A stretch of DNA of 64,000 nt from Cellulomonadaceae bacterium (GCA_038118225.1 JAYOHK010000004.1:4773-68772), one strand, 5' to 3'. Positions 18,489 through 28,192 are shown, counted from the stretch's first letter. Notes: generated by a model not told the origin, from the sequence alone. Numbers and translations: made by a program.

Positions 18489-19871
18489 ATGTCAATTCCA
18501 CAGCTAGGACTTGTGCAAGACACCCCCGACGAATACTCCCGTCAAGGAGAGCGCACCCCGCCTCACGATCTTCTGGCCGAACAAAGCACCCTCGGGGGAA
18601 TGCTGCTGAGCAAAGACGCCGTTGCTGACGTCATCGAAGTGCTGAAGGGACGTGATTTCTACCACCCCAAGCACGAAATCATTTTCGACGCGATCTTGTC
18701 GCTGTATTCCCACGGTGAACCCACCGACGTCATCACAGTCTCTGATGAGCTGACCAAAACCGGAATGCTCCAGCGTGCTGGAGGCGTGGACTATCTCCAC
18801 ACCATTGTGTCGTTGGTTCCCACTGCAGCAAGTGCCGGCCACTACGCGAGCATCGTGAGCGAGAAGGCCGTGCTTCGTCGCCTCGTCGACGCAGGAACCC
18901 GCATCGCCAACATGGGTTACGCCAGCGAAGGTGAAGTCAACGAGCTGGTCAACATCGCCCAGACGGAGATTTACCAAGTCCACGGCGGGGCAGACTCCGA
19001 TGACTACGTCCCCGTCAACGAAGCGGTCACTGCGGCCGTGGATGAAATCGAAGCAGCAAAGGGCACCGGCGGAAAAATGCTCGGTGTTCCCTCGGGCTTC
19101 CGTGACCTCGACGAGCTCACCAACGGTTTTCACCGCGGTCAGCTGATTCTTGTTGCCGCCCGTCCTGCCTTGGGTAAGTCAACCTTGGCCTTGGACTTTG
19201 CGCGCTCCGCCTCAATCAAGCACTCGATGCCCACCATCTTCTTCTCCCTTGAAATGGGTCGCGCTGAAATTGCGATGCGACTGCTGTCGGCAGAAGCAGC
19301 AATTCCCCTGCAGAAAATGCGCAAGGGAACAATCGAACAGCGCGACTGGACCACCATCGCCCAGGTGCGTGGAGACATTGACGCAGCGCCGCTGTATATC
19401 GACGACAGCCCCAACATGACCCTGGTAGAAATTCGTGCCAAGTGCCGCAGGCTCAAGCAGCGCGTGGGTCTTCAAATGGTCGTCATCGACTATCTGCAGT
19501 TGATGACCTCCGGCAAGCGCGTTGAGTCTCGCCAACAAGAAGTGAGTGAGTTTTCTCGCTCGCTCAAGCTGTTGGCAAAAGAGCTTCAGGTACCAGTAAT
19601 CGCCCTGTCACAGCTCAACCGTGGTCCCGAGCAGCGCTCAGACCGCAAGCCACAGCTGAGCGACCTTCGTGAATCGGGTTCGTTGGAACAAGACGCCGAC
19701 GCAGTGATCTTGCTCCACCGCGAGTCCGCCTACGAAAAAGACAACCCCCGTGCCGGCGAAGCAGACTTCATTCTCGCCAAGCACCGTAACGGTCCCACCG
19801 GAACGGTCACCGTGGGATTCCAGGGCCACTATTCGCGCTTTGCGGATATGCCCCACGTCCCGCAGGTCTAG
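18489..19871 (+). CDS. dnaB: Replicative DNA helicase DnaB
   Basis: AARPALGKST, IDYLQLM, LRESGSLEQDAD, KHRNGPTG; no intein. Confidence 0.99.
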   Translation: MSIPQLGLVQDTPDEYSRQGERTPPHDLLAEQSTLGGMLLSKDAVADVIEVLKGRDFYHPKHEIIFDAILSLYSHGEPTDVITVSDELTKTGMLQRAGGVDYLHTIVSLVPTAASAGHYASIVSEKAVLRRLVDAGTRIANMGYASEGEVNELVNIAQTEIYQVHGGADSDDYVPVNEAVTAAVDEIEAAKGTGGKMLGVPSGFRDLDELTNGFHRGQLILVAARPALGKSTLALDFARSASIKHSMPTIFFSLEMGRAEIAMRLLSAEAAIPLQKMRKGTIEQRDWTTIAQVRGDIDAAPLYIDDSPNMTLVEIRAKCRRLKQRVGLQMVVIDYLQLMTSGKRVESRQQEVSEFSRSLKLLAKELQVPVIALSQLNRGPEQRSDRKPQLSDLRESGSLEQDADAVILLHRESAYEKDNPRAGEADFILAKHRNGPTGTVTVGFQGHYSRFADMPHVPQV

Positions 19872-21080
19872 TTAGACCCGGGGGATTCCGTAGAACTGGT
19901 CGATCTCGGCCATGTAGTCGGCGTAGGAAAGTGCGACTACTCGCGCACCGTCTTTATCGAAGCTCAGCACACCGGCATCGGCCAGGTTTGCCATGAGGTT
20001 GAGATGTCCGCCGATGTTGTGGTGAGAAAACGAGACACACCGCTCCAACACAATGCCAGTGCTGCCGGATTGATCGGTGCTTTGGTCTCGCTCGGCATCG
20101 AAGCGGACATCGTTTGCGGTGTAAGCAGTCTGGGATGCGAAGAACGTGGTTCCCGTGATCGATACCTGCACGTCTGGCACGTGGAGGAGATCCCAGGCAG
20201 CAAGAGGAACCATGTTGGTGCGATCCCAGGGCATGGGAAGAAGCCGCTTGTGGTGAAAAGAAACCCGTGAGTTCTTTACTCCCAACGCCATCCCGCTGTC
20301 GGTGCGGAAAGACAGATACGAGAACGGCTTGAGAAGCGATGCTTTGTGCTCGCGCACAAACCATTTGGTGGTCTTGCTGTTGGCATAGGCCAGGTCACAT
20401 CGACCAGACGCAATGTCAGAGCCTGGCCACGTCACAACTCCGGGCGCGATGACTCGAGCAACCACGGTCGTTGCCGGTACCTTTTTTGCTCGCGCGGGTG
20501 TGGGCGCTGGCCCCACAATCGATACCGAGCGTCCTTCGACAACACCTCTCCAGGACAAGTCCTCGCTCCACGCAGCAACACCGGCTTCGCCGTTGCTCCA
20601 CAGCCACAGGTAATGACCTGCGTCAGCCCAAAACTCATCCTCCGGTGTGACGCCTCGTTGGAAGGCACTTGTTGCCGCTTCGAGGTTTCTGGTGTGGACG
20701 GCTCCGACAAACGCTTGCTCGGGCTTCGGAGACTTAGCCAGTGTGGCCATTGCCTTTGCACCGAATGCGGAGGCAGCGGCAAAACAACCAGCTGCTTGGC
20801 CGATGCTTTCGACCAAGAACCATGCCTCGACCGACCGGGGCGAATAGCTCTGTGCGAGGGCACGCAGCGATGCGCTCGCATCTGCGTGGCTGAGCGAGTC
20901 ATCCATCCGACCGCAGATCACACCCTCCAGCACCGCAACAGCATCACGACCGATGTATCTGGCGTATGAAGAGAGGGCCGCGGTGACGGCCTTTTTGTCA
21001 CCGGCTTCAATTGACGCCTTGGCACGCTCGAGCAACTCTCGGCGTTTGACGCTCCGGTATCGCTCCAGCAGGTTCGCCAT
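19872..21080 (-). CDS. Hypothetical protein; helical N-domain plus divergent sialyltransferase-like (GT29/GT73-type fold) C-domain
   Basis: GRSVSIVGPAP..VVARV..RCDLAY..TNMVPLAAWDLL..ITGTTFF..HHN; clear paralog of 21080-22315. Confidence 0.55.
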   Translation of the reverse strand: MANLLERYRSVKRRELLERAKASIEAGDKKAVTAALSSYARYIGRDAVAVLEGVICGRMDDSLSHADASASLRALAQSYSPRSVEAWFLVESIGQAAGCFAAASAFGAKAMATLAKSPKPEQAFVGAVHTRNLEAATSAFQRGVTPEDEFWADAGHYLWLWSNGEAGVAAWSEDLSWRGVVEGRSVSIVGPAPTPARAKKVPATTVVARVIAPGVVTWPGSDIASGRCDLAYANSKTTKWFVREHKASLLKPFSYLSFRTDSGMALGVKNSRVSFHHKRLLPMPWDRTNMVPLAAWDLLHVPDVQVSITGTTFFASQTAYTANDVRFDAERDQSTDQSGSTGIVLERCVSFSHHNIGGHLNLMANLADAGVLSFDKDGARVVALSYADYMAEIDQFYGIPRV

Positions 21081-22315
21081 TAGAGGCGCTCTATTCCATA
21101 GAGCTCATCGAGCTCGGTCAAATAGTCCACGACGTTGAGGTCAATAACCCTTTTGCAGTCTTTATCGACCGTGATGGCGCCAGCTTGGGCGAGGTTTGCC
21201 ACCAGGGCCAGGTTTTCCGTCACGTTGTGGCGAGCAAAAGTGGGGCAGCGCTCGAAGAGTTCCCCGGTGCTTCCGGTTTCATCGGTGGGCTTTCCTAAGG
21301 TGTGTTTAAAACGACGGTTGGTGTCGGTGTAGGCCGTTTGCGAGGCAAAGAAGGTCGTTCCACCCAGCGTCAGCGAGGCACCTTCGACACTCAACACATC
21401 CCAGACCATCAGCGGAATCATGTTGGGCGAGGAACCACCAATCATCAACGAGGAGGGGTTGTGGCTGGCCCGGAAATTCTTGGAGCCAATCTCGCCCCAC
21501 TCTTGCGAGGAACGGTCCACCCTGAAACTCACAGTGTCAAAGCGGGAGAGTTGATCCCACGCGTTTGTTTCCTTGATCCACATCCTGGTTTCACGGCTTA
21601 CCCAGGCCAGCTCGCAGCGACCGCCGAGAGGGTCGCGTGTTTCATCCCAGGTCAAGACGTCTTGCATGGCCACGCGACCCACGAGTGACGACTTCTTCAG
21701 ATTCGAGGTGGTGAGCGAAGTGGGTGCAGGACCCATCACGACAACGTCGCGACCCGCAAGCTTTTCTGACCAGTCAGAGTCGCTGCTCCAGTGAGCTCGG
21801 CCCGCTGTTCCACGGCTCCACACCCACAGGTAGTGACCGGCGTCTTGGGCCTCCGCCGACTCATAGCCAGAAAGCTCATCCCACGCCTTAGTCGCTGCTG
21901 CCAGGTCGCGGCTGTGGAGGCCGCTGAGAAAGCGGTCTCGGGGGTCATCGCTTCGAGACAGCGCATCAAGGCCGTGGAGCGTGAATTCGTGTGACGCTCT
22001 AAAGCAACCAATCGTGCGAGAGAGGTTTTCGACGCTAAACCACGTCGTGGCCGGTTTCGATTGGTGAGCCATCGAGGCTGCGAGCGCAGTCAGCCTGGTT
22101 GAGGCTTCTTCGTGGCCCATCGAATTATCGACTCGACCGGCAATGATCAGGTAGAGCTCCTGGGCTTCAAACAGGCCCAAGCCGACTTGGGTGCGGGTAG
22201 TCAGAAGGACTTTTTGGATCTTTGAAGCGGAGCCTGCGCGCACGGCAGCCTTCACGCCGGTAATCAACACAGTGTGTGGATTTCTCCGACGAGGAAGTAA
22301 ACGCGACCAGCGCAT
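21080..22315 (-). CDS. Hypothetical protein; helical N-domain plus divergent sialyltransferase-like C-domain
   Basis: GRDVVVMGPAP..LVGRV..RCELAW..SPNMIPLMVWDVL..LGGTTFF..RHN; GGAGG SD; stop/start overlap with its paralog. Confidence 0.55.
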   Translation of the reverse strand: MRWSRLLPRRRNPHTVLITGVKAAVRAGSASKIQKVLLTTRTQVGLGLFEAQELYLIIAGRVDNSMGHEEASTRLTALAASMAHQSKPATTWFSVENLSRTIGCFRASHEFTLHGLDALSRSDDPRDRFLSGLHSRDLAAATKAWDELSGYESAEAQDAGHYLWVWSRGTAGRAHWSSDSDWSEKLAGRDVVVMGPAPTSLTTSNLKKSSLVGRVAMQDVLTWDETRDPLGGRCELAWVSRETRMWIKETNAWDQLSRFDTVSFRVDRSSQEWGEIGSKNFRASHNPSSLMIGGSSPNMIPLMVWDVLSVEGASLTLGGTTFFASQTAYTDTNRRFKHTLGKPTDETGSTGELFERCPTFARHNVTENLALVANLAQAGAITVDKDCKRVIDLNVVDYLTELDELYGIERL

Positions 22316-22351
22316 GTCGTCCTCCCCTAGGGCTCACGATAGATTGGACGT

Positions 22352-23080
22352 GTGCCGAATCCCCACGTCATTATTCCAGCACGCCTCGCATCAACGCGGT
22401 TCCCTCGCAAGGTTCTCGCCGATGTGGGGGGTAAGCCCATGGTCCAGCGCGTGTGGGAACAAGCCGTTGAGGCGGTAGGTGTTGACTACGCAATCGTCGC
22501 AACTGACTCTGACGAAATCGCCGATGTTGCCAAAGCCTTTGGCGCTCAGGTGCGAATGACGTCCGAAAAGGCCACCTGTGGAACAGAACGCGTCGCCGAG
22601 ATTGCCGCCGACTTGGACGCATCCTGTTTGGTAAATGTCCAAGCAGACGACCCGTTTGTCCCCGCGTCGCTCATCAACGATTCCATCGAAGCGTTTTTCG
22701 ACCGCGGCCTTGGAGTGTGTACCCCGATTTTCCGGTTGAGCATTGACGATGGACAAACCCCTCACATTGTCAAAGTGGCCCGCTCTTCCTCTGGCCGGGC
22801 TCTTTACTTCTCCCGGTCTGTCATTCCGTTCGACCGTGACGGTGTGACGGGTGAGCACCACCTGTGGGGCCACGTCGGTCTCTACGTCTACAGCCCAGAG
22901 GCAGTCGCCGCCTATCAGGGCTTTGGCGAGAGCGAATTGGAACAGCGAGAAAAACTCGAACAGCTTCGCTTCCTCGCAAACGACATCCCCGTCGCCACCT
23001 TCGTCACCGACTACACCCCTCACGCAGTGGATGTTCCAGAAGATCTCGAGCAGATGGTGAGGGCGATGAACCATGACTGA
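22352..23080 (+). CDS. kdsB: CMP-Kdo synthetase (3-deoxy-manno-octulosonate cytidylyltransferase)
   Basis: IPARLASTRFPRK, GTER, NVQADDP, LYFSRSVIP, HVGLY, LEQREKLEQLRFL. Confidence 0.95.
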   Translation: MPNPHVIIPARLASTRFPRKVLADVGGKPMVQRVWEQAVEAVGVDYAIVATDSDEIADVAKAFGAQVRMTSEKATCGTERVAEIAADLDASCLVNVQADDPFVPASLINDSIEAFFDRGLGVCTPIFRLSIDDGQTPHIVKVARSSSGRALYFSRSVIPFDRDGVTGEHHLWGHVGLYVYSPEAVAAYQGFGESELEQREKLEQLRFLANDIPVATFVTDYTPHAVDVPEDLEQMVRAMNHD

Positions 23081-24050
23081 TTCACTGGTCGAACGCGCTA
23101 AGGCGGTCCTCACCACTGAGCGAGACGGTCTTGACCAGGCCATTGAGCGCTCCGCCGAACAGGTGGCTCACGCGGCCAGGCTAATTCTGGATCGCGCCCC
23201 CAAAGACGTCATCATCACGGGTGTGGGAAAGTCAGGCCACGTCGCCCACAAACTTGCCGCCACCCTCACCAGCGTGGGAACGAGAACACACTTCTTGTGG
23301 ACCTCGGAGATGTTCCACGGCGACCTGGGGAGCGTCGATCACGCAGGAGTCGTGATCATCGTCTCCAAGAGCGGCTCGGGCCAAGACATCGCCCAGCTTG
23401 TCGACTTTGCCCGCGAGCGAGGAATTGCCCTGATTGGGCTCATTGGAGATCGACACTCGCCGATTGTCAACAAGCTCGACATGTTCATTGACGCGTCGGT
23501 TCACCAAGAAGCAGACCCGGAAGGCTTTGTTCCCACCACCTCCACCACGGTGGCGTTGGCATTGGGCGATGCGCTCGCAGTGTGTTTGATGGAGGCCAAA
23601 GGTTTCACGTCAATCGACTTTGCCGCCTTCCACCCCAACGGTGCCCTCGGCGCTCGTCTCAACCGCACTGTTCGCGACGTAATGGCCGGAACCAGCGAGG
23701 TTCCTGTGCTCGAGCCCACCCATTCAGTGCGCGACCTCGCGATTGCGATGAGCAAATACCCCACCGGTTTGGCGCTTGTATTGGGTACTGGAGGTCAACT
23801 ATCCGGAGTCGTCAGTGACGGTGACCTTCGTCGCGCACTCACTGAAGTAACTGACTTGTCCAACACTCAGGTCGCTCAAGTGATGACTACTGAGCCCACC
23901 ACCATTGGCCCCGACGTCCACCTGGCCCACGCCTTGTCGGTCATGGAAGGCCACACCCCTGGAGCCATTTCCGCCCTACCCGTTGTCGACAACAACGACG
24001 TGTTGGGTGTCATCACCATTCACCAACTACACCGAGAGATTCCCTCATGA
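23073..24050 (+). CDS. kdsD: Arabinose-5-phosphate isomerase KdsD/KpsF (SIS + 2 CBS)
   Basis: GVGKSG, HGDLG, PTTST, FHPNGALG, CBS pair with SDGDLRR. Confidence 0.94.
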   Translation: MTDSLVERAKAVLTTERDGLDQAIERSAEQVAHAARLILDRAPKDVIITGVGKSGHVAHKLAATLTSVGTRTHFLWTSEMFHGDLGSVDHAGVVIIVSKSGSGQDIAQLVDFARERGIALIGLIGDRHSPIVNKLDMFIDASVHQEADPEGFVPTTSTTVALALGDALAVCLMEAKGFTSIDFAAFHPNGALGARLNRTVRDVMAGTSEVPVLEPTHSVRDLAIAMSKYPTGLALVLGTGGQLSGVVSDGDLRRALTEVTDLSNTQVAQVMTTEPTTIGPDVHLAHALSVMEGHTPGAISALPVVDNNDVLGVITIHQLHREIPS

Positions 24051-24874
24051 TGCCCACTCGTGCACCGTCAATCCAGATCACCGATTCGATCACTCTCGGC
24101 GGCGACCGTCTGGTCATCTTTGCGGGACCCTGCTCGATCGAGACCGAAGACATCACCATGCAGGTAGCCGAGAGTGTGAAGAAGATGGGCGCCGACCTCG
24201 ATGTCGACGTTATTTTCAAAGCCTCGTACGACAAGGCAAACCGCACCTCAATTGGTTCCTACCGCTCCGCTGGAATGCAGGAGGGCCTTCGTATCCTCCA
24301 GCGCGTAAAAGACGAGCTGGGTATGCCGGTCATCACCGACGTGCACGAATCAACCCAGGTGCCCACGGTGGCCGAAGTGGCTGATGTGTTGCAGATTCCA
24401 GCATTCTTGTGCCGCCAGACTGACCTGCTGATTGCCGCAGGAGAATCTGGTCGAGCAGTGAACATCAAGAAGGGCCAGTTCATGGCTGCTCGCGACATGC
24501 GCTTTGCTGCCGAAAAGGTCCGCTCGGCAGGAGGCAAGAACGTCTTCCTCACTGAGCGTGGAACCACCTTCGGCTACCACGACCTTGTTGTCGACATGCG
24601 CTCGTTCCCGATCATGCGCGAGTTTGCTCCCGTGGTTCACGACGTCACTCACAGCATCCAGCAGCCAGGTGCTGCTGATGGTTCCTCCGGCGGCGCCCGC
24701 TGGCTCGCCGCTCCGCTGGCCAAGAGTGCTGTGGCCATTGGTGTGGATGGATTGTTCCTGGAGACCCACCCTGATCCCGACAACGCATTGTCGGATGGCC
24801 CGAACATGATTCCGACTGCCGAACTGCCAGCCGTGATCGCCAAGTTGAAGGCCATCTGGGAAGTAGCCAAGTGA
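24047..24874 (+). CDS. kdsA: Kdo-8-phosphate synthase (metal-dependent type)
   Basis: AGPCSIE, KASYDKANRTS, QIPAFLCRQTDL, NIKKGQF, DVTHS, FLETHP..SDG. Confidence 0.97.
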   Translation: MMPTRAPSIQITDSITLGGDRLVIFAGPCSIETEDITMQVAESVKKMGADLDVDVIFKASYDKANRTSIGSYRSAGMQEGLRILQRVKDELGMPVITDVHESTQVPTVAEVADVLQIPAFLCRQTDLLIAAGESGRAVNIKKGQFMAARDMRFAAEKVRSAGGKNVFLTERGTTFGYHDLVVDMRSFPIMREFAPVVHDVTHSIQQPGAADGSSGGARWLAAPLAKSAVAIGVDGLFLETHPDPDNALSDGPNMIPTAELPAVIAKLKAIWEVAK

Positions 24875-25374
24875 CCTCACTGAGCGCCGGCGAGGCACAG
24901 GCGGTCAAACTGATCGCGCTCGATATCGATGGCGTGCTCTCTGATGGCACGGTGTCGATGGATACCGAAGGTAAAGAGCGTCGTGTCTTTGACATCAAAG
25001 ACGGCCTCGGAGTGGTGCGCCTGGTGAAGTCAGGTCGCCAGGTTGTGGTGATTTCATCGTCTGCCTCGACCGCGGGTATTTCACGGCTTGAGCGTTTGGG
25101 CATTAATCCCGTTCACACCGGGGTGGGCAACAAATTAGATGTGTTGACCGAACTCGTCCACGCTGCCGGAATCGAGTGGTCGGAAGTGGCCTACATGGGC
25201 GATGATCTCCCTGACCTCGACTGCCTTGCGGCAGTAGGGGTGTCCTGCGCACCGGCCGACGCGGTGGCTGCGGTCAAGAAAGCAGCACGCTATGTCACCA
25301 ACGCTCTCGGGGGACGAGGAGCAGTGCGCGAGCTCTCCGATCTCATCGTCGATGGCGTGTGGCCCGAAGGATGA
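24871..25374 (+). CDS. kdsC: Kdo-8-phosphate phosphatase (C0 HAD)
   Basis: DIDGVLSDG, KDGLG, GDDLPD, GGRGAVRE. Confidence 0.93.
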   Translation: MTSLSAGEAQAVKLIALDIDGVLSDGTVSMDTEGKERRVFDIKDGLGVVRLVKSGRQVVVISSSASTAGISRLERLGINPVHTGVGNKLDVLTELVHAAGIEWSEVAYMGDDLPDLDCLAAVGVSCAPADAVAAVKKAARYVTNALGGRGAVRELSDLIVDGVWPEG

Positions 25375-25381
25375 ATACCCG

Positions 25382-25945
25382 GTGAGAGATTTTCCCTGGC
25401 GCGACAAAACCATTTCCCTGGTGGGAAATGCGTCGAGCCTGTGGGAAGGAAACTTCGGGCCTCAGATCGACGAGGCCGAATGTGTGATCCGGATCAACCA
25501 GGGGGCGTTCATCGAGCTTTATCCCCAATCAACTGGCGTGCGCACTGATGCGCTGTTGATGTCGCTCAATGGCAACTCGGTTGAGAAGGCATGGATGTAT
25601 TCCAGGGCGAGGCGTCGGGCGAAGACGGTTGTCGCCATGACGCCAAAGGATCGAAAATTCCTCGGCCTGGACCTCGCCTCACTCATCCCGGTCTACCCCG
25701 AGCAGTGGCATCGCGAACTCCACGAGCTCATGGGCGCTCGGCCATCGACGGGAGCAATGGCAGTGGACCTGCTTCGTCGCACGGTCAGTGACCCTGGACA
25801 AATCAGTATTTTCGGGTTTGATTTTTGGGGCTCACCCACGACCTATACCGGCAAGATCAAAGCGGCACCACACGATCCCGAGGCCGAAGAAAACTTCGTC
25901 CGAGGTGCGGTCAACACGGGCAAAGTGTTCCAGGTGGGCCGCTGA
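25382..25945 (+). CDS. GT29 (sialyltransferase-motif) family glycosyltransferase 1
   Basis: Sialylmotif-L-like LVGNASSL..IDEAECVIRIN..GVRTD; S-like PSTGAMAVD..IFGF; VS HDPEAE (HxxxxE); GTG at 25382 with GAAGGA SD preferred over track start 25292. Confidence 0.82.
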   Translation: MRDFPWRDKTISLVGNASSLWEGNFGPQIDEAECVIRINQGAFIELYPQSTGVRTDALLMSLNGNSVEKAWMYSRARRRAKTVVAMTPKDRKFLGLDLASLIPVYPEQWHRELHELMGARPSTGAMAVDLLRRTVSDPGQISIFGFDFWGSPTTYTGKIKAAPHDPEAEENFVRGAVNTGKVFQVGR

Positions 25946-26526
25946 TGGCGAGTGAGCAGAGATTTCCTTGGGCCGACGCACGCGTGGCGTTGGTGGGAAG
26001 CGCGCAGTCTCTTGAAAATTCCGACTTTGGCCCGGCCATCGATGCCCACGACTTAGTGATTCGCATCAACCAGGGGGCATTTGCGAACCTTCAGCCTCAC
26101 AACACTGGTGTGCGCACGGACTATTTGTTTATGACGTTGACCGGTGGAACAAATTCCGCCAAGTGGAGTTTCATTCGCCGGGGCCAGAAGGCAGCCAAAA
26201 AGGGCGTTGTCTTGATGTCATCGAAGGGCCGCACCCTCTTTCGCATCGACGTGACGCCGTTTTTTCTCCACTATCCAGCCGCCTGGCACGAAGAGCTCAT
26301 CAAAGAGCTTGGCCACCGACCCTCCACCGGCGCCATGGCCGTTGACTTGTTGACGAGGACGATGAGCACCCCAGACACCCTCGATGTGTATGGCTTTGAC
26401 TTTTTTAAGACTCCAGACATTGCCCATGGGCGCAACAACGTAGTCGCCCACGATCCAGGTGTGGAAGAGGATTACATTCGCAGAATCATCCCGGCACACC
26501 GTTTTCACGAGTCACCTCAGGCATAG
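25945..26526 (+). CDS. GT29 (sialyltransferase-motif) family glycosyltransferase 2
   Basis: LVGSAQSL..IDAHDLVIRIN..GVRTD; PSTGAMAVD..VYGF; HDPGVE; TGATG coupling to the upstream paralog. Confidence 0.82.
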   Translation: MASEQRFPWADARVALVGSAQSLENSDFGPAIDAHDLVIRINQGAFANLQPHNTGVRTDYLFMTLTGGTNSAKWSFIRRGQKAAKKGVVLMSSKGRTLFRIDVTPFFLHYPAAWHEELIKELGHRPSTGAMAVDLLTRTMSTPDTLDVYGFDFFKTPDIAHGRNNVVAHDPGVEEDYIRRIIPAHRFHESPQA

Positions 26527-26568
26527 GCCAACCCGGTAGCCTAAACCGTCGCTATTTAACAAAGGGGA

Positions 26569-27654
26569 ATGAGTTTCGTGGCAGGAAAGCTTGGCACCAT
26601 CGTCGTCTTGAACGACACGGCAGCGATCCCCCACTACGGCTGCAAGGTCGTGATGAAGCGCGTGGTCGACACGCTCGCAGGCTACGGCTTCGAGATCAAA
26701 ACAGTTTCTGTCTATTCCACTTGGCGGGTACACAAGAAACTCATCGACCAGTCAGTCGGTGTCGTCGTCAACGGTGAAGGAACTATTCACCACTCGGCAA
26801 AACGAGGTCGCTCCTTGGTAGCTGTTGCGCCGTATTGCGAGTCCAAGGGCATTCCTGTGTTCTTGATTAACTCGGTCTGGCAAGACAACAGCGACGAGAT
26901 GGCCGAAGAAGCCGGCAAGTTCCTGCTGCGCTACGTCCGAGAGTCTCGTTCCAAGAAACAATTTGCCGCGCAAGGCCTCTCCGCCACGATGGTTCCCGAC
27001 CTCACTCTCGGCTGGGACTACCAGCGCACCTCCCCCACCCGCTCCGGTCGGATCTATACCGACGCAGTGGGCATGCCGGCAACCGATCTTCTCTATCGCT
27101 TGCACCGCGAAGATCCAGGATCTCGGTACTTGACGATGACTCCACCGAGGGGCCACCGCGGTGACTACCCCGACGCCGAGTTCGAACGGCTCCGCCCCCC
27201 GCTTGATGAAACCATCGGCCACACCATCAAACTGAAGCTCAACCGCACCTACAAGCTGATCTTCTTGATCCGCGGCAAGCTCAAGAACCTGGTGCGCCAG
27301 ATGCGCGGTGACCTTGAAATGGTTCCCCTCACCGACTTCATGGGAAGCCTCGAAGGCGCCGAACTGGTGGTGACCGGCCGCTTCCACGGAGTGTGTTTGT
27401 GCATTTTGACGGGTACTCCGTTCCTCGCCATCACCTCCAACAGCCACAAAGTAGAAGGCATGCTCGAAGACGCAGGGCTCTCCCACCGAATCGTTCACCC
27501 CAGAGACATTCGCGCGGTGTTGGCCCACCCGCCAAAGTGGACCAAAGACGATGCGGAGAAGGCCGAAGCCTTCGTCCAAAAAGCACGTCGTGGGCAAAAG
27601 ACCATGTTCAACAAGGTTGTAAAGATGATTAAAGAGGCAAGTAGTGCACAGTAA
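26569..27654 (+). CDS. Polysaccharide pyruvyltransferase family protein
   Basis: HYGC, VNGEGTIHH, YVRESRS, VPDL, VTGRFHG, PFLAITSNSHK. Confidence 0.85.
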   Translation: MSFVAGKLGTIVVLNDTAAIPHYGCKVVMKRVVDTLAGYGFEIKTVSVYSTWRVHKKLIDQSVGVVVNGEGTIHHSAKRGRSLVAVAPYCESKGIPVFLINSVWQDNSDEMAEEAGKFLLRYVRESRSKKQFAAQGLSATMVPDLTLGWDYQRTSPTRSGRIYTDAVGMPATDLLYRLHREDPGSRYLTMTPPRGHRGDYPDAEFERLRPPLDETIGHTIKLKLNRTYKLIFLIRGKLKNLVRQMRGDLEMVPLTDFMGSLEGAELVVTGRFHGVCLCILTGTPFLAITSNSHKVEGMLEDAGLSHRIVHPRDIRAVLAHPPKWTKDDAEKAEAFVQKARRGQKTMFNKVVKMIKEASSAQ

Positions 27655-28192
27655 CCCGGCACTGGCAATCAAGCTCTACGCCTGGTTCGCCGTCGTGGCC
27701 GCAGTCTTTGCCGCCATCGAAACCTTCAACCGCGTCGAGACTGCAGAGTTTGCTCACTTAAGTTGGGGCGGCGCCCTTCTCGCCTTAGGCCTTGGCCACA
27801 CCGTCATCTTCCTGACTTCTGGTCGACCCCAGGGGTGGTGGACCTGGTGGGTGGGAACAAGCCTCACCGCGATTGTGGTGGGAGCACTCACACTTGGCCT
27901 TCTCCAGATCGCAGAGTCTGGTTTTGTTGTCTGGTCGATTGTGGTGTGGGCCCTGGTGGCAGGAGCATCGACACTGGTGACGGCGCTGCGCCTAGAAAAA
28001 GGAACCGAGCGTTCGGACTGGTTTGTGGTGGGCGGCGCAACGCTGCTGCTTGGAATTGTGACCCTGGTTGTTCCGGGGGAGCTGGTGTGGACCATGGGAA
28101 TGACCGGTGTCTGGGCGAGCGTCGTGGCAGTGTTCCTGGGAATTGGCGCGGTCAATTTGCGTCAGGTAGCTAAAGAGGCGAAAGATACATAA
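27644..28192 (+). CDS. Integral membrane protein (HdeD/DUF308-like)
   Basis: About six hydrophobic helices. Confidence 0.65.
   Translation: MHSNPALAIKLYAWFAVVAAVFAAIETFNRVETAEFAHLSWGGALLALGLGHTVIFLTSGRPQGWWTWWVGTSLTAIVVGALTLGLLQIAESGFVVWSIVVWALVAGASTLVTALRLEKGTERSDWFVVGGATLLLGIVTLVVPGELVWTMGMTGVWASVVAVFLGIGAVNLRQVAKEAKDT

Follow-up and report, generated by a model that had tools for sequence, protein, structure and literature searches.

Positions 19872..27654 of a 64,000-nucleotide stretch from Cellulomonadaceae bacterium GCA_038118225.1 (JAYOHK010000004.1:4773-68772; the whole stretch is called the window below) carry a cassette of nine genes flanked by dnaB and a DUF308 gene (Table 1); the assembly comprises 1.23 Mb and is 87% complete. 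Four genes, kdsB, kdsD, kdsA and kdsC, are predicted to supply CMP-activated ketodeoxyoctonic acid (Kdo). They are followed by two short genes of glycosyltransferase (GT) family 29 and a pyruvyltransferase gene, and two further genes, orfA and orfB, for larger proteins with a tetratricopeptide repeat (TPR)-like region, are read divergently. Kdo is regarded as marking Gram-negative envelopes and plant rhamnogalacturonan II (RG-II). We consider it probable that the nine genes are one inherited cassette whose GT29-fold enzymes add alpha-linked Kdo to a surface glycan.

Table 1 Features of the nine-gene cassette and its flanks, in window positions (HMM, hidden Markov model)
Feature	Position	Strand	Description and evidence
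orfA	19872..21080	-	402 aa; helical TPR-like N-terminus and GT29/GT42-fold C-terminus; predicted CMP-ulosonate transferase
orfB	21080..22315	-	411 aa; TPR-like and GT29/GT42-fold; predicted CMP-ulosonate transferase
divergent control region	22316..22351	.	36 bases between orfB and kdsB
kdsB, CMP-Kdo synthetase	22352..23080	+	TIGR00466 184 bits
kdsD/kpsF, arabinose-5-phosphate isomerase	23073..24050	+	TIGR00393 250 bits; PF01380 (SIS) and two CBS domains (PF00571)
kdsA, Kdo-8-phosphate synthase	24047..24874	+	TIGR01362 375 bits
kdsC, Kdo-8-phosphate phosphatase family	24871..25374	+	TIGR01670 131 bits
gt29a, short soluble GT29 protein	25382..25945	+	~187 aa, GTG start inferred; PF00777 40 bits
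gt29b, short soluble GT29 protein	25945..26526	+	193 aa; PF00777 51 bits
pvt, polysaccharide pyruvyltransferase family (WcaK/CsaB-like)	26569..27654	+	361 aa; PF04230 56 bits
dnaB, left flank outside cassette	18489..19871	+	HMM; stop codon abuts orfA stop codon
DUF308/HdeD-like membrane protein, right flank outside cassette	27644..28192	+	weak PF03729 match, E 0.01

The kds genes overlap by 8 (kdsB/kdsD), 4 (kdsD/kdsA) and 4 (kdsA/kdsC) bases, and each product scores above its curated NCBIfam cut-off (TIGR00466, 155 bits; TIGR00393, 204; TIGR01362, 314; TIGR01670, 107), giving a complete CMP-Kdo gene set in the overlapping operon that the original prediction had described. Against the PDB, KdsB matched KdsB proteins at 117-152 bits and NeuA at 30-36 bits, and KdsA matched Kdo-8-phosphate (KDO8P) synthases best, at 301 bits, versus 113 bits for 3-deoxy-D-arabino-heptulosonate-7-phosphate (DAHP) synthases. 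KdsA contains the stretches KANR(T/S) and PAFLCR, as does the solved KDO8P synthase 1fwn, and we take both motifs to have a functional role; a literature search for them gave no match. The KdsC protein scored 138 bits with a KdsC model and 112 bits with a Kdn-9-phosphate phosphatase model (Kdn, ketodeoxynononic acid), both below their own equivalog cut-offs. A function of kdsA as DAHP synthase was rejected on the TIGR01362 score, the 301 versus 113 bits in the PDB comparison and the presence of a separate class II DAHP synthase in five of five genomes searched. KdsD, KdsA, KdsC and KdsB convert ribulose 5-phosphate and phosphoenolpyruvate to CMP-beta-Kdo, and, judged from its sequence, the cassette encodes this four-step route.

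The gt29a and gt29b proteins, 43-47% identical to one another, have the characteristics of GT29 enzymes, namely PF00777 scores above the Pfam gathering score of 23 bits, sialylmotifs L, S and VS, and a GT-A variant fold. Across 51 gt29b homologues motifs L, S and VS are invariant, as are the VS His and Glu, and motif III is atypical in gt29b. Its structural model (mean predicted local distance difference test score, pLDDT, 87.9) gave the animal sialyltransferase ST6GalNAc2 as top Foldseek match (E 5.7e-6, TMq 0.60), and gt29a lacks a hydrophobic helix. The pvt product passes PF04230 (gathering score 25 bits), falls far below the CsaB and WcaK model cut-offs and is a predicted polysaccharide pyruvyltransferase; two sialylmotif proteins and a protein of the pyruvyltransferase family do lie downstream of kdsC, as in the original prediction.

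The divergent pair had been called sialylmotif-like paralogs, a description that holds for the fold and not at the level of Pfam. OrfA and OrfB (38% identical) have no Pfam match up to E 1 and so do not reach the PF00777 gathering score. A profile search with the family returned 489 clusters at 50% identity, and the profile built for comparison (A3, with OrfA among its members; 130 sequences, mostly from the best 150 of the 489 clusters) aligned to the gt29a/b profile with a probability of 96.4 and E 1.3e-9. The AlphaFold model of OrfB (pLDDT 95.4) has an all-helical N-terminal part, and its C-terminal domain was closest in VIA-align to ST3Gal-I (2wnf; Z 10.1, root mean square deviation (rmsd) 3.8, 181 aligned residues), with Cst-I next (2p56; Z 9.3, rmsd 4.1, 179 aligned), so that GT29 and GT42 are tied as structural matches. 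Foldseek with the same model returned nothing at E 0.001 or better, and ESM Atlas matches for the OrfB domain (0.88-0.90, with GT29 annotated on 24-31% of members) serve as leads only. The His of motif VS is kept in 95% of distant family members and in OrfA, with the Glu replaced by Asn or Gln. Homologues have TPR matches; PF00777 is matched by some, in P0242 inside the stretch aligned to OrfB, and fusions to GT2, GT4 or CST-I domains occur among them, in proteins of 1300-2250 aa. Sequence and model together assign OrfA and OrfB to a previously unnamed TPR-GT29 subfamily of GT29/GT42 fold. GT29 enzymes invert, and all four GT29-fold proteins of the cassette are predicted inverting CMP-ulosonate transferases, with the donor suggested by gene context. 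Among the largest homologues, P0242, P0252, P0308 and P0309 are giant proteins (934-2256 aa) that combine TPR-GT29 with GT2, GT4 or CST-I and look like capsule polymerases; their named sources are Desulfurispira and Rhabdochromatium.

In the divergent region, TAGATT stands 6 bases before the kdsB GTG and a GGAGG ribosome site for orfB lies on the minus strand; both elements are kept in seven of seven genomes compared. TAGATT is likely the -10 element of a leaderless kdsB transcript. A scan of the 36 bases found no two-hexamer sigma-70 promoter, promoter and terminator scans of the locus stayed at chance level, and no RNA data were among the public runs listed as holding locus DNA.

That the cassette is genuine, undamaged and of long standing follows from its fixed order across the clade, purifying selection, a base composition like that of the flanks and junction-bridging contigs. 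The nine-gene order between dnaB and DUF308/purB recurs in six of eight relatives, the other two being cut by contig ends, and contigs from public runs bridge both junctions, although one run may be the source itself. A chimera at the dnaB or 27644 junction, a risk raised in the original prediction, and contamination were ruled out on this order, the bridging contigs and GC and third-position GC (GC3) values matching the flanks. A recent island was likewise ruled out, GC3 being 0.65-0.71 as in the flanks and no mobility gene lying between dnaB and DUF308. The core actinobacterial origin surroundings noted before are there too, with dnaA-, yidC-, parA/B-, ssb-, rplI- and dnaB-like genes in the window (by eye from translations; dnaB by HMM). 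For all nine genes, the ratio of nonsynonymous to synonymous substitution rates (dN/dS) against relative G009 was 0.015-0.097 (0.097 for orfA, 0.074 for orfB and 0.035 for gt29a; two genes on partial sequence), indicating purifying selection.

Of 38 genomes surveyed in the Pontimonas-like genus, 11 have kdsA and exactly these 11 have PF00777; the TPR-GT29 family occurs in them and in one further bin with 10% contamination. The closest named gt29b relatives are from Pontimonas, uncultured Microbacteriaceae or metagenome-assembled genomes labelled 'Cellulomonadaceae', and cassette DNA was found in estuary and marine metagenomes. A DnaB tree without outgroup (30 of the 35 genomes with dnaB) includes 10 of the 11 cassette-bearing genomes, which make up one side of a branch supported at 100/100. 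In all 20 cassette-free genomes of the tree the DUF308 gene comes immediately after dnaB, with purB next; the DUF308 gene is thus the ancestral neighbour of dnaB, and the cassette was inserted between them. Searches found kdsA in none of 296 genomes from the family's other genera and in 5 of 400 from across the phylum, and we infer from this that the cassette was gained rather than lost.

Two side observations belong to this survey. Bin G011 (L017, L027) holds two near-copies of gt29a-gt29b-pvt-DUF308-purB, probably from two strains binned together. The other actinobacterial kdsA loci (L048:7124-11725, L049:9512-16556 and L050-L052; five genomes) also have kdsB and kdsD, with no GT29-like neighbour in the DNA around them; their partners include a gene resembling GT8 or, on a 33%-GC contig, a cluster of Wzx/Wzy type with a sulfotransferase.

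The system had originally been proposed as novel, which does not stand, for an orthologous locus of Pontimonas salivibrio (C3B54_11156-11164) was published in 2018, with seven of the nine genes listed with a function in the accessible part of that report (PMC6106888). It has the same order from dnaB to an HdeD-like gene, with kdsB/D/A/C as 'KDO-CMP synthesis', two PF00777 genes and a pyruvyl transferase, so the Kdo supply pathway and both short GT29 genes were, by that text, already known. It describes Kdo as rare outside Gram-negatives and supposes that it decorates a polyrhamnose wall glycan. It differs from the account given here in filing the GT29 genes under sialic acid and naming another gene 'possible KDO transferase'; the divergent pair is given there as 'Conserved protein' for which BLAST gave no matches, and the sections available hold no chemistry. 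What is new relative to those sections of PMC6106888 is the TPR-GT29 fold of the divergent pair, the distribution of the nine-gene unit over the clade and the interpretation of Kdo as donor. In the literature searched, which covered few subscription papers, PMC6106888 was the only work on Pontimonas and Kdo and no test of the locus was found, nor any report of an actinobacterial wall polymer in which Kdo had been proved by chemistry. A monoderm Kdo island is also described for Bacillus coahuilensis m2-6, with horizontally acquired kdsA, B, C and D whose function is untested (as far as the excerpt of PMC4744853 goes); that island is strain-specific, low in GC, flanked by insertion sequences and has a kpsC-annotated gene, whereas the present cassette is ameliorated and fixed in its clade.

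Among better-known systems, the canonical CMP-Kdo pathway, which feeds WaaA (GT30), KpsS/KpsC (GT107) and GT99, uses the same four supply enzymes, here above cut-off; in contrast to it, LpxC and WaaA are absent from all five genomes searched and the linked transferases are GT29-fold. In plants, a mutant of the GT29 protein RCKT1 is described as lacking alpha-Kdo, and RCKT1/MGP2, a putative transferase for RG-II, shares with the cassette proteins the GT29 sialylmotifs and a proposed CMP-beta-Kdo donor used with inversion to an alpha product; by the same partial account it is a Golgi enzyme with genetic evidence only and no activity shown in vitro, whereas here soluble proteins of 187-411 aa are encoded beside donor genes (PMC11288761). 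Escherichia coli K6 is described with a GT29-GT107 dual protein and a putative poly-Kdo capsule (PMC13171606, available in part), and E. coli K15 with a Maf/CstII-like protein predicted to be an alpha-Kdo transferase (PMC7387560, likewise). Both resemble the cassette in that a GT-A variant fold is predicted to put Kdo into a surface polymer, K6 being likened by description; they differ in being diderm group 2/3 capsule systems with a KpsS/KpsC lipid anchor, where the present one is monoderm with four stand-alone genes. The bacterial GT29 sialyltransferase-like proteins described in PMC5811610 share motifs L, S, III and VS; 19 of the 23 sequences in that set are alphaproteobacterial, and its main text, as available, lacks the words 'actinobacteria', 'operon' and 'synteny'. 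At the polymer level, genes not being compared, anionic pyruvylated ulosonate surface polymers are described, in the accessible text of PMC6801904, from Promicromonospora citrea (7,9-pyruvylated Kdn, a teichulosonic acid) and Cobetia marina (an exopolysaccharide of ribose and 7,8-pyruvyl-alpha-Kdo); the former uses a nine-carbon sugar, and Cobetia is a diderm.

Several lines of evidence point to Kdo as the donor. Translation of the short GT29 genes is coupled to that of kdsC, and kdsB and the TPR-GT29 pair diverge from one conserved stretch of 36 bases. PF00777 keeps to the 11 genomes of the genus with kdsA and was found in none of the 19 that have a NeuB-family match and no kdsA. Among the 33 best TPR-GT29 loci from metagenomes, 19 lie near an ulosonate gene (13 of the 14 others are on less than 6 kb), and all six strong TPR-GT29 matches in other actinobacterial genomes or bins have a donor-pathway neighbour. 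As these genes usually adjoin a donor pathway, and the neighbour here is kds, this counts for a Kdo donor. For the short GT29 proteins, a NeuB match is absent from 8 of 13 genomes with relatives (genome completeness not established; two are phage-linked GT8 fusions), and 6 of these 8 are Alphaproteobacteria by record title, which would be expected to make CMP-Kdo.

A further locus, L154:216-6522, on a 39%-GC metagenome contig of unassigned lineage, has a TPR-GT29 gene, a GT4, a pyruvyltransferase, a kdsC-kdsB fusion, kdsA and kdsD in one run. The pyruvyltransferase is of the closest kind to pvt (32% identity, E 5e-56), and by its gene content L154 is an independent version of the module with all four kds functions.

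Other observations weigh against a Kdo donor. The 11 cassette genomes form one DnaB branch (10 genomes in the tree), which makes the co-occurrence of kdsA and GT29 one evolutionary event and not 11. A scan of the genome for lpx, waaA, kps and neu genes, as originally suggested, found no LpxC, WaaA or PF05159 match here and did find a neu pathway: a NeuA fused to a KdsC-like phosphatase and a short NeuB of 290 aa are encoded at G000:C12:3216-5240 (L056), probably a second, Kdn-type ulosonate pathway that, from sequence comparison, appears orthologous across the cassette clade. This NeuB is 82-91% identical in six of six cassette-bearing relatives and 36-45% in four of four others. Since the DUF6716 transferase of other actinobacterial Neu loci was found in none of the five genomes, the NeuA/NeuB pair needs a transferase. 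A Maf/MptE-like protein could by analogy be the Kdo transferase; within the genus it was found in 7 of the 11 genomes with the cassette and in none of the 27 others, and the 4 cassette genomes in which it was missed, this one included, are all drafts (56-91% complete). It is taken, from gene order only, to be the orthologue of the 'possible KDO transferase' of P. salivibrio, and it gave no alignment to the GT29 profile. In genome G014 it is a 324-aa protein (L233:10414-11385) encoded after fucose genes in a wall-glycan cluster. Related Maf enzymes take both donors, and Maf enzymes can use Ser/Thr as acceptors for Kdo, according to the portions of the literature available; the K15 protein, a predicted alpha-Kdo transferase, is a precedent for the Maf-like candidate. 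The neighbours of TPR-GT29 in the 33 best metagenome loci were nonulosonate genes in 13, kdsA in 1 and kdsB- or kdsD-like genes only in 5, and KdsA is absent from five actinobacteria with TPR-GT29; the family is therefore not Kdo-specific. OrfA and OrfB group apart from the L154 enzyme, 14 short-GT29 loci from outside the genus were free of kds genes in the DNA covered, which reached at most 10 kb on either side (four have a pyruvyltransferase gene), and only 1 of 80 viral kdsA loci matches GT29 profiles.

We therefore weighed other divisions of labour. The short GT29 proteins might transfer Kdo and the TPR-GT29 pair the nine-carbon, probably Kdn-like, product of NeuA/NeuB, giving a mixed glycan. 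Nonulosonate genes adjoin TPR-GT29 in five of five well-assembled actinobacterial genomes, all without KdsA, and the adjacent NeuB in two of them is 64-67% identical to that of this genome; OrfA and OrfB nest among nonulosonate-linked sequences and not with the kds-linked L154 enzyme, and their genes are on a transcript of their own. We nevertheless consider such a split unlikely, as family genes usually adjoin their apparent donor pathway, which for orfA/orfB is kds, as orfA/orfB and kds share one insertion site, and as the Maf-like gene, about 25 kb from neuA/neuB in the G014 wall-glycan cluster, could serve the NeuA/NeuB pathway. The published assignment goes further, with all GT29 proteins as sialyl- or Kdn-transferases on the NeuA/NeuB product and the Maf-like protein of the rhamnose/ABC-exporter cluster moving Kdo. 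The supplement of PMC6106888, where available, files the short GT29 genes and the 'possible KDO transferase' in this way, the restriction of the Maf-like gene to the cassette clade (7/11) fits it and E. coli K15 is a precedent, but it would leave two gene sets each adjoining the donor pathway of the other, it meets the four draft cassette genomes in which no Maf-like gene was found, and NeuB is missing from 8 of 13 genomes with short-GT29 relatives; we rate it as very unlikely. That the KdsA-like enzyme uses erythrose 4-phosphate or another sugar phosphate, so that the product is an ulosonate other than Kdo, seems scarcely credible: KdsC does fall below its equivalog cut-off and a KdsB-like enzyme is paired with an aldolase in some TPR-GT29 loci, yet KdsA is above cut-off with the 1fwn motifs, an arabinose-5-phosphate isomerase gene adjoins kdsA and the DAHP synthase is encoded separately. 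Transfer of Kdo by the GT29-fold enzymes, as originally proposed, is thus kept as the best reading, with the Neu pathway, the Maf-like candidate and the broader donor range of the TPR-GT29 family set against it.

Some TPR-GT29 neighbourhoods are of interest in themselves. In other Microbacteriaceae (L251:9518-10843 and L252:9176-10489) the gene stands beside a nonulosonate set that looks legionaminic by eye, with no KdsA. Longer TPR-GT29 proteins occur in three genomes of another actinobacterial genus (L150:8788-10713, L151:8272-10245 and L152:8422-10266), next to neuA/neuB together with DUF6716, Stealth, ABC or polysialyltransferase-like genes. At L253:154-3867, and alike at L177, L182 and L184, TPR-GT29 is accompanied by an HMGL-type aldolase-like gene and a KdsB-/NeuA-like synthetase; such loci, lacking a nearby KdsA or NeuB, possibly represent an undescribed ulosonate route.

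If Kdo is the donor, KdsD, KdsA, KdsC and KdsB would supply CMP-Kdo, the four GT29-fold proteins would attach Kdo in alpha linkage and the product of the last gene, pvt, would pyruvylate the surface glycan. No membrane-like hydrophobic stretch was found in any of the nine proteins, which suggests that transfer would take place in the cytoplasm or on the inner face of the membrane. The acceptor may be a polyprenyl-linked, rhamnose-type wall glycan built elsewhere, on which the two short GT29 proteins would place single Kdo residues and the two TPR-bearing ones would extend or cap the chain; the pyruvylated glycan would then be exported by a Wzm/Wzt-type ABC transporter and tied to peptidoglycan. 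We propose this combination tentatively, as one possibility. Genome G014 has a cluster of rml, GT2/GT4 and Wzm/Wzt-type genes adjoining neuA/neuB. On the other side, flippase, polymerase and transporter genes are absent from the cassette, a Wzm-type permease was not found in this 87%-complete assembly, in which the wall-glycan cluster is present as fragments only, and Wzt_C gave no match in the five genomes; the missing permease may be due to missing sequence. The lack of genes for lipopolysaccharide, noted in the window before, extends to the five genomes (LpxC and WaaA 0/5, one genome being closed and 99% complete). PF05159, the KpsS/KpsC family, had no match in four of the five, this one included, and one weak partial match in G014 (22.7 bits, far from the cassette). 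On these searches the cassette is not for lipopolysaccharide, and a KpsS/KpsC capsule is not shown.

Alternatively, the cassette enzymes could move Kdo onto a protein or a membrane glycolipid, with the TPR-like region recognising a protein acceptor. The region itself, the resemblance in fold to Maf (5mu5; Z 6.0, rmsd 4.8, 167 aligned), the ability of Maf enzymes, as far as described, to glycosylate Ser/Thr with Kdo and a cassette without export or polymerase gene are in line with this. We find it quite unlikely, however, as flagellin (PF00669) is absent from the five genomes, a polysaccharide pyruvyltransferase belongs to the cassette, and TPR-GT29 homologues appear in settings typical of polymer loci, being fused to GT2, GT4 and CST-I domains or, in G183, encoded immediately behind an ABC ATPase, with Stealth and NeuA/NeuB genes close by.

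The cassette thus works like a self-contained module that makes, activates and transfers an ulosonic acid, which is most likely Kdo. An abundant coastal actinobacterial clade that retains a Kdo cassette by selection would depart clearly from the view of Kdo as a Gram-negative and plant marker, and it has a cultured representative. Because the four proteins are small, soluble and encoded with their own donor pathway, Kdo transfer by GT29 becomes directly testable, and the TPR-GT29 subfamily (489 clusters), found beside several ulosonate pathways, is a resource on donor switching. A more speculative and doubtful proposal is that this streamlined marine or saline clade makes a pyruvylated wall polymer, oligo- or poly-Kdo in alpha linkage, with the four GT29-fold enzymes only, the TPR pair having switched donor from nonulosonates to Kdo. 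If true, the polymer would be the eight-carbon counterpart of teichulosonic acid, and the locus would offer the first GT29 Kdo transferases open to in vitro study together with a monoderm Kdo wall polymer, of which no report was found in the literature searched.

The searches for relatives in mobile elements bear on a possible close phage origin. No viral relative was found with gt29b alone as query and no GenBank phage matched; alignment A2 gave seven distant viral relatives (25-32% identity) with kds genes at none, neuB at one and a pyruvyltransferase at one. There were two matches to plasmids, and kds genes are absent from the one that was looked at. A 201-aa family occurs near phage kdsA at 17 of 80 loci (L329:4851-5453 and 16 others); it has no Pfam match, appears GT-like by eye and has a Gly-Asn-Gly start that recalls the GT29 fold. 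In two prophage-like regions, GT8-GT29 fusions (L035:9305-10474 and L037:9302-10474) lie directly before phage terminase and portal genes.

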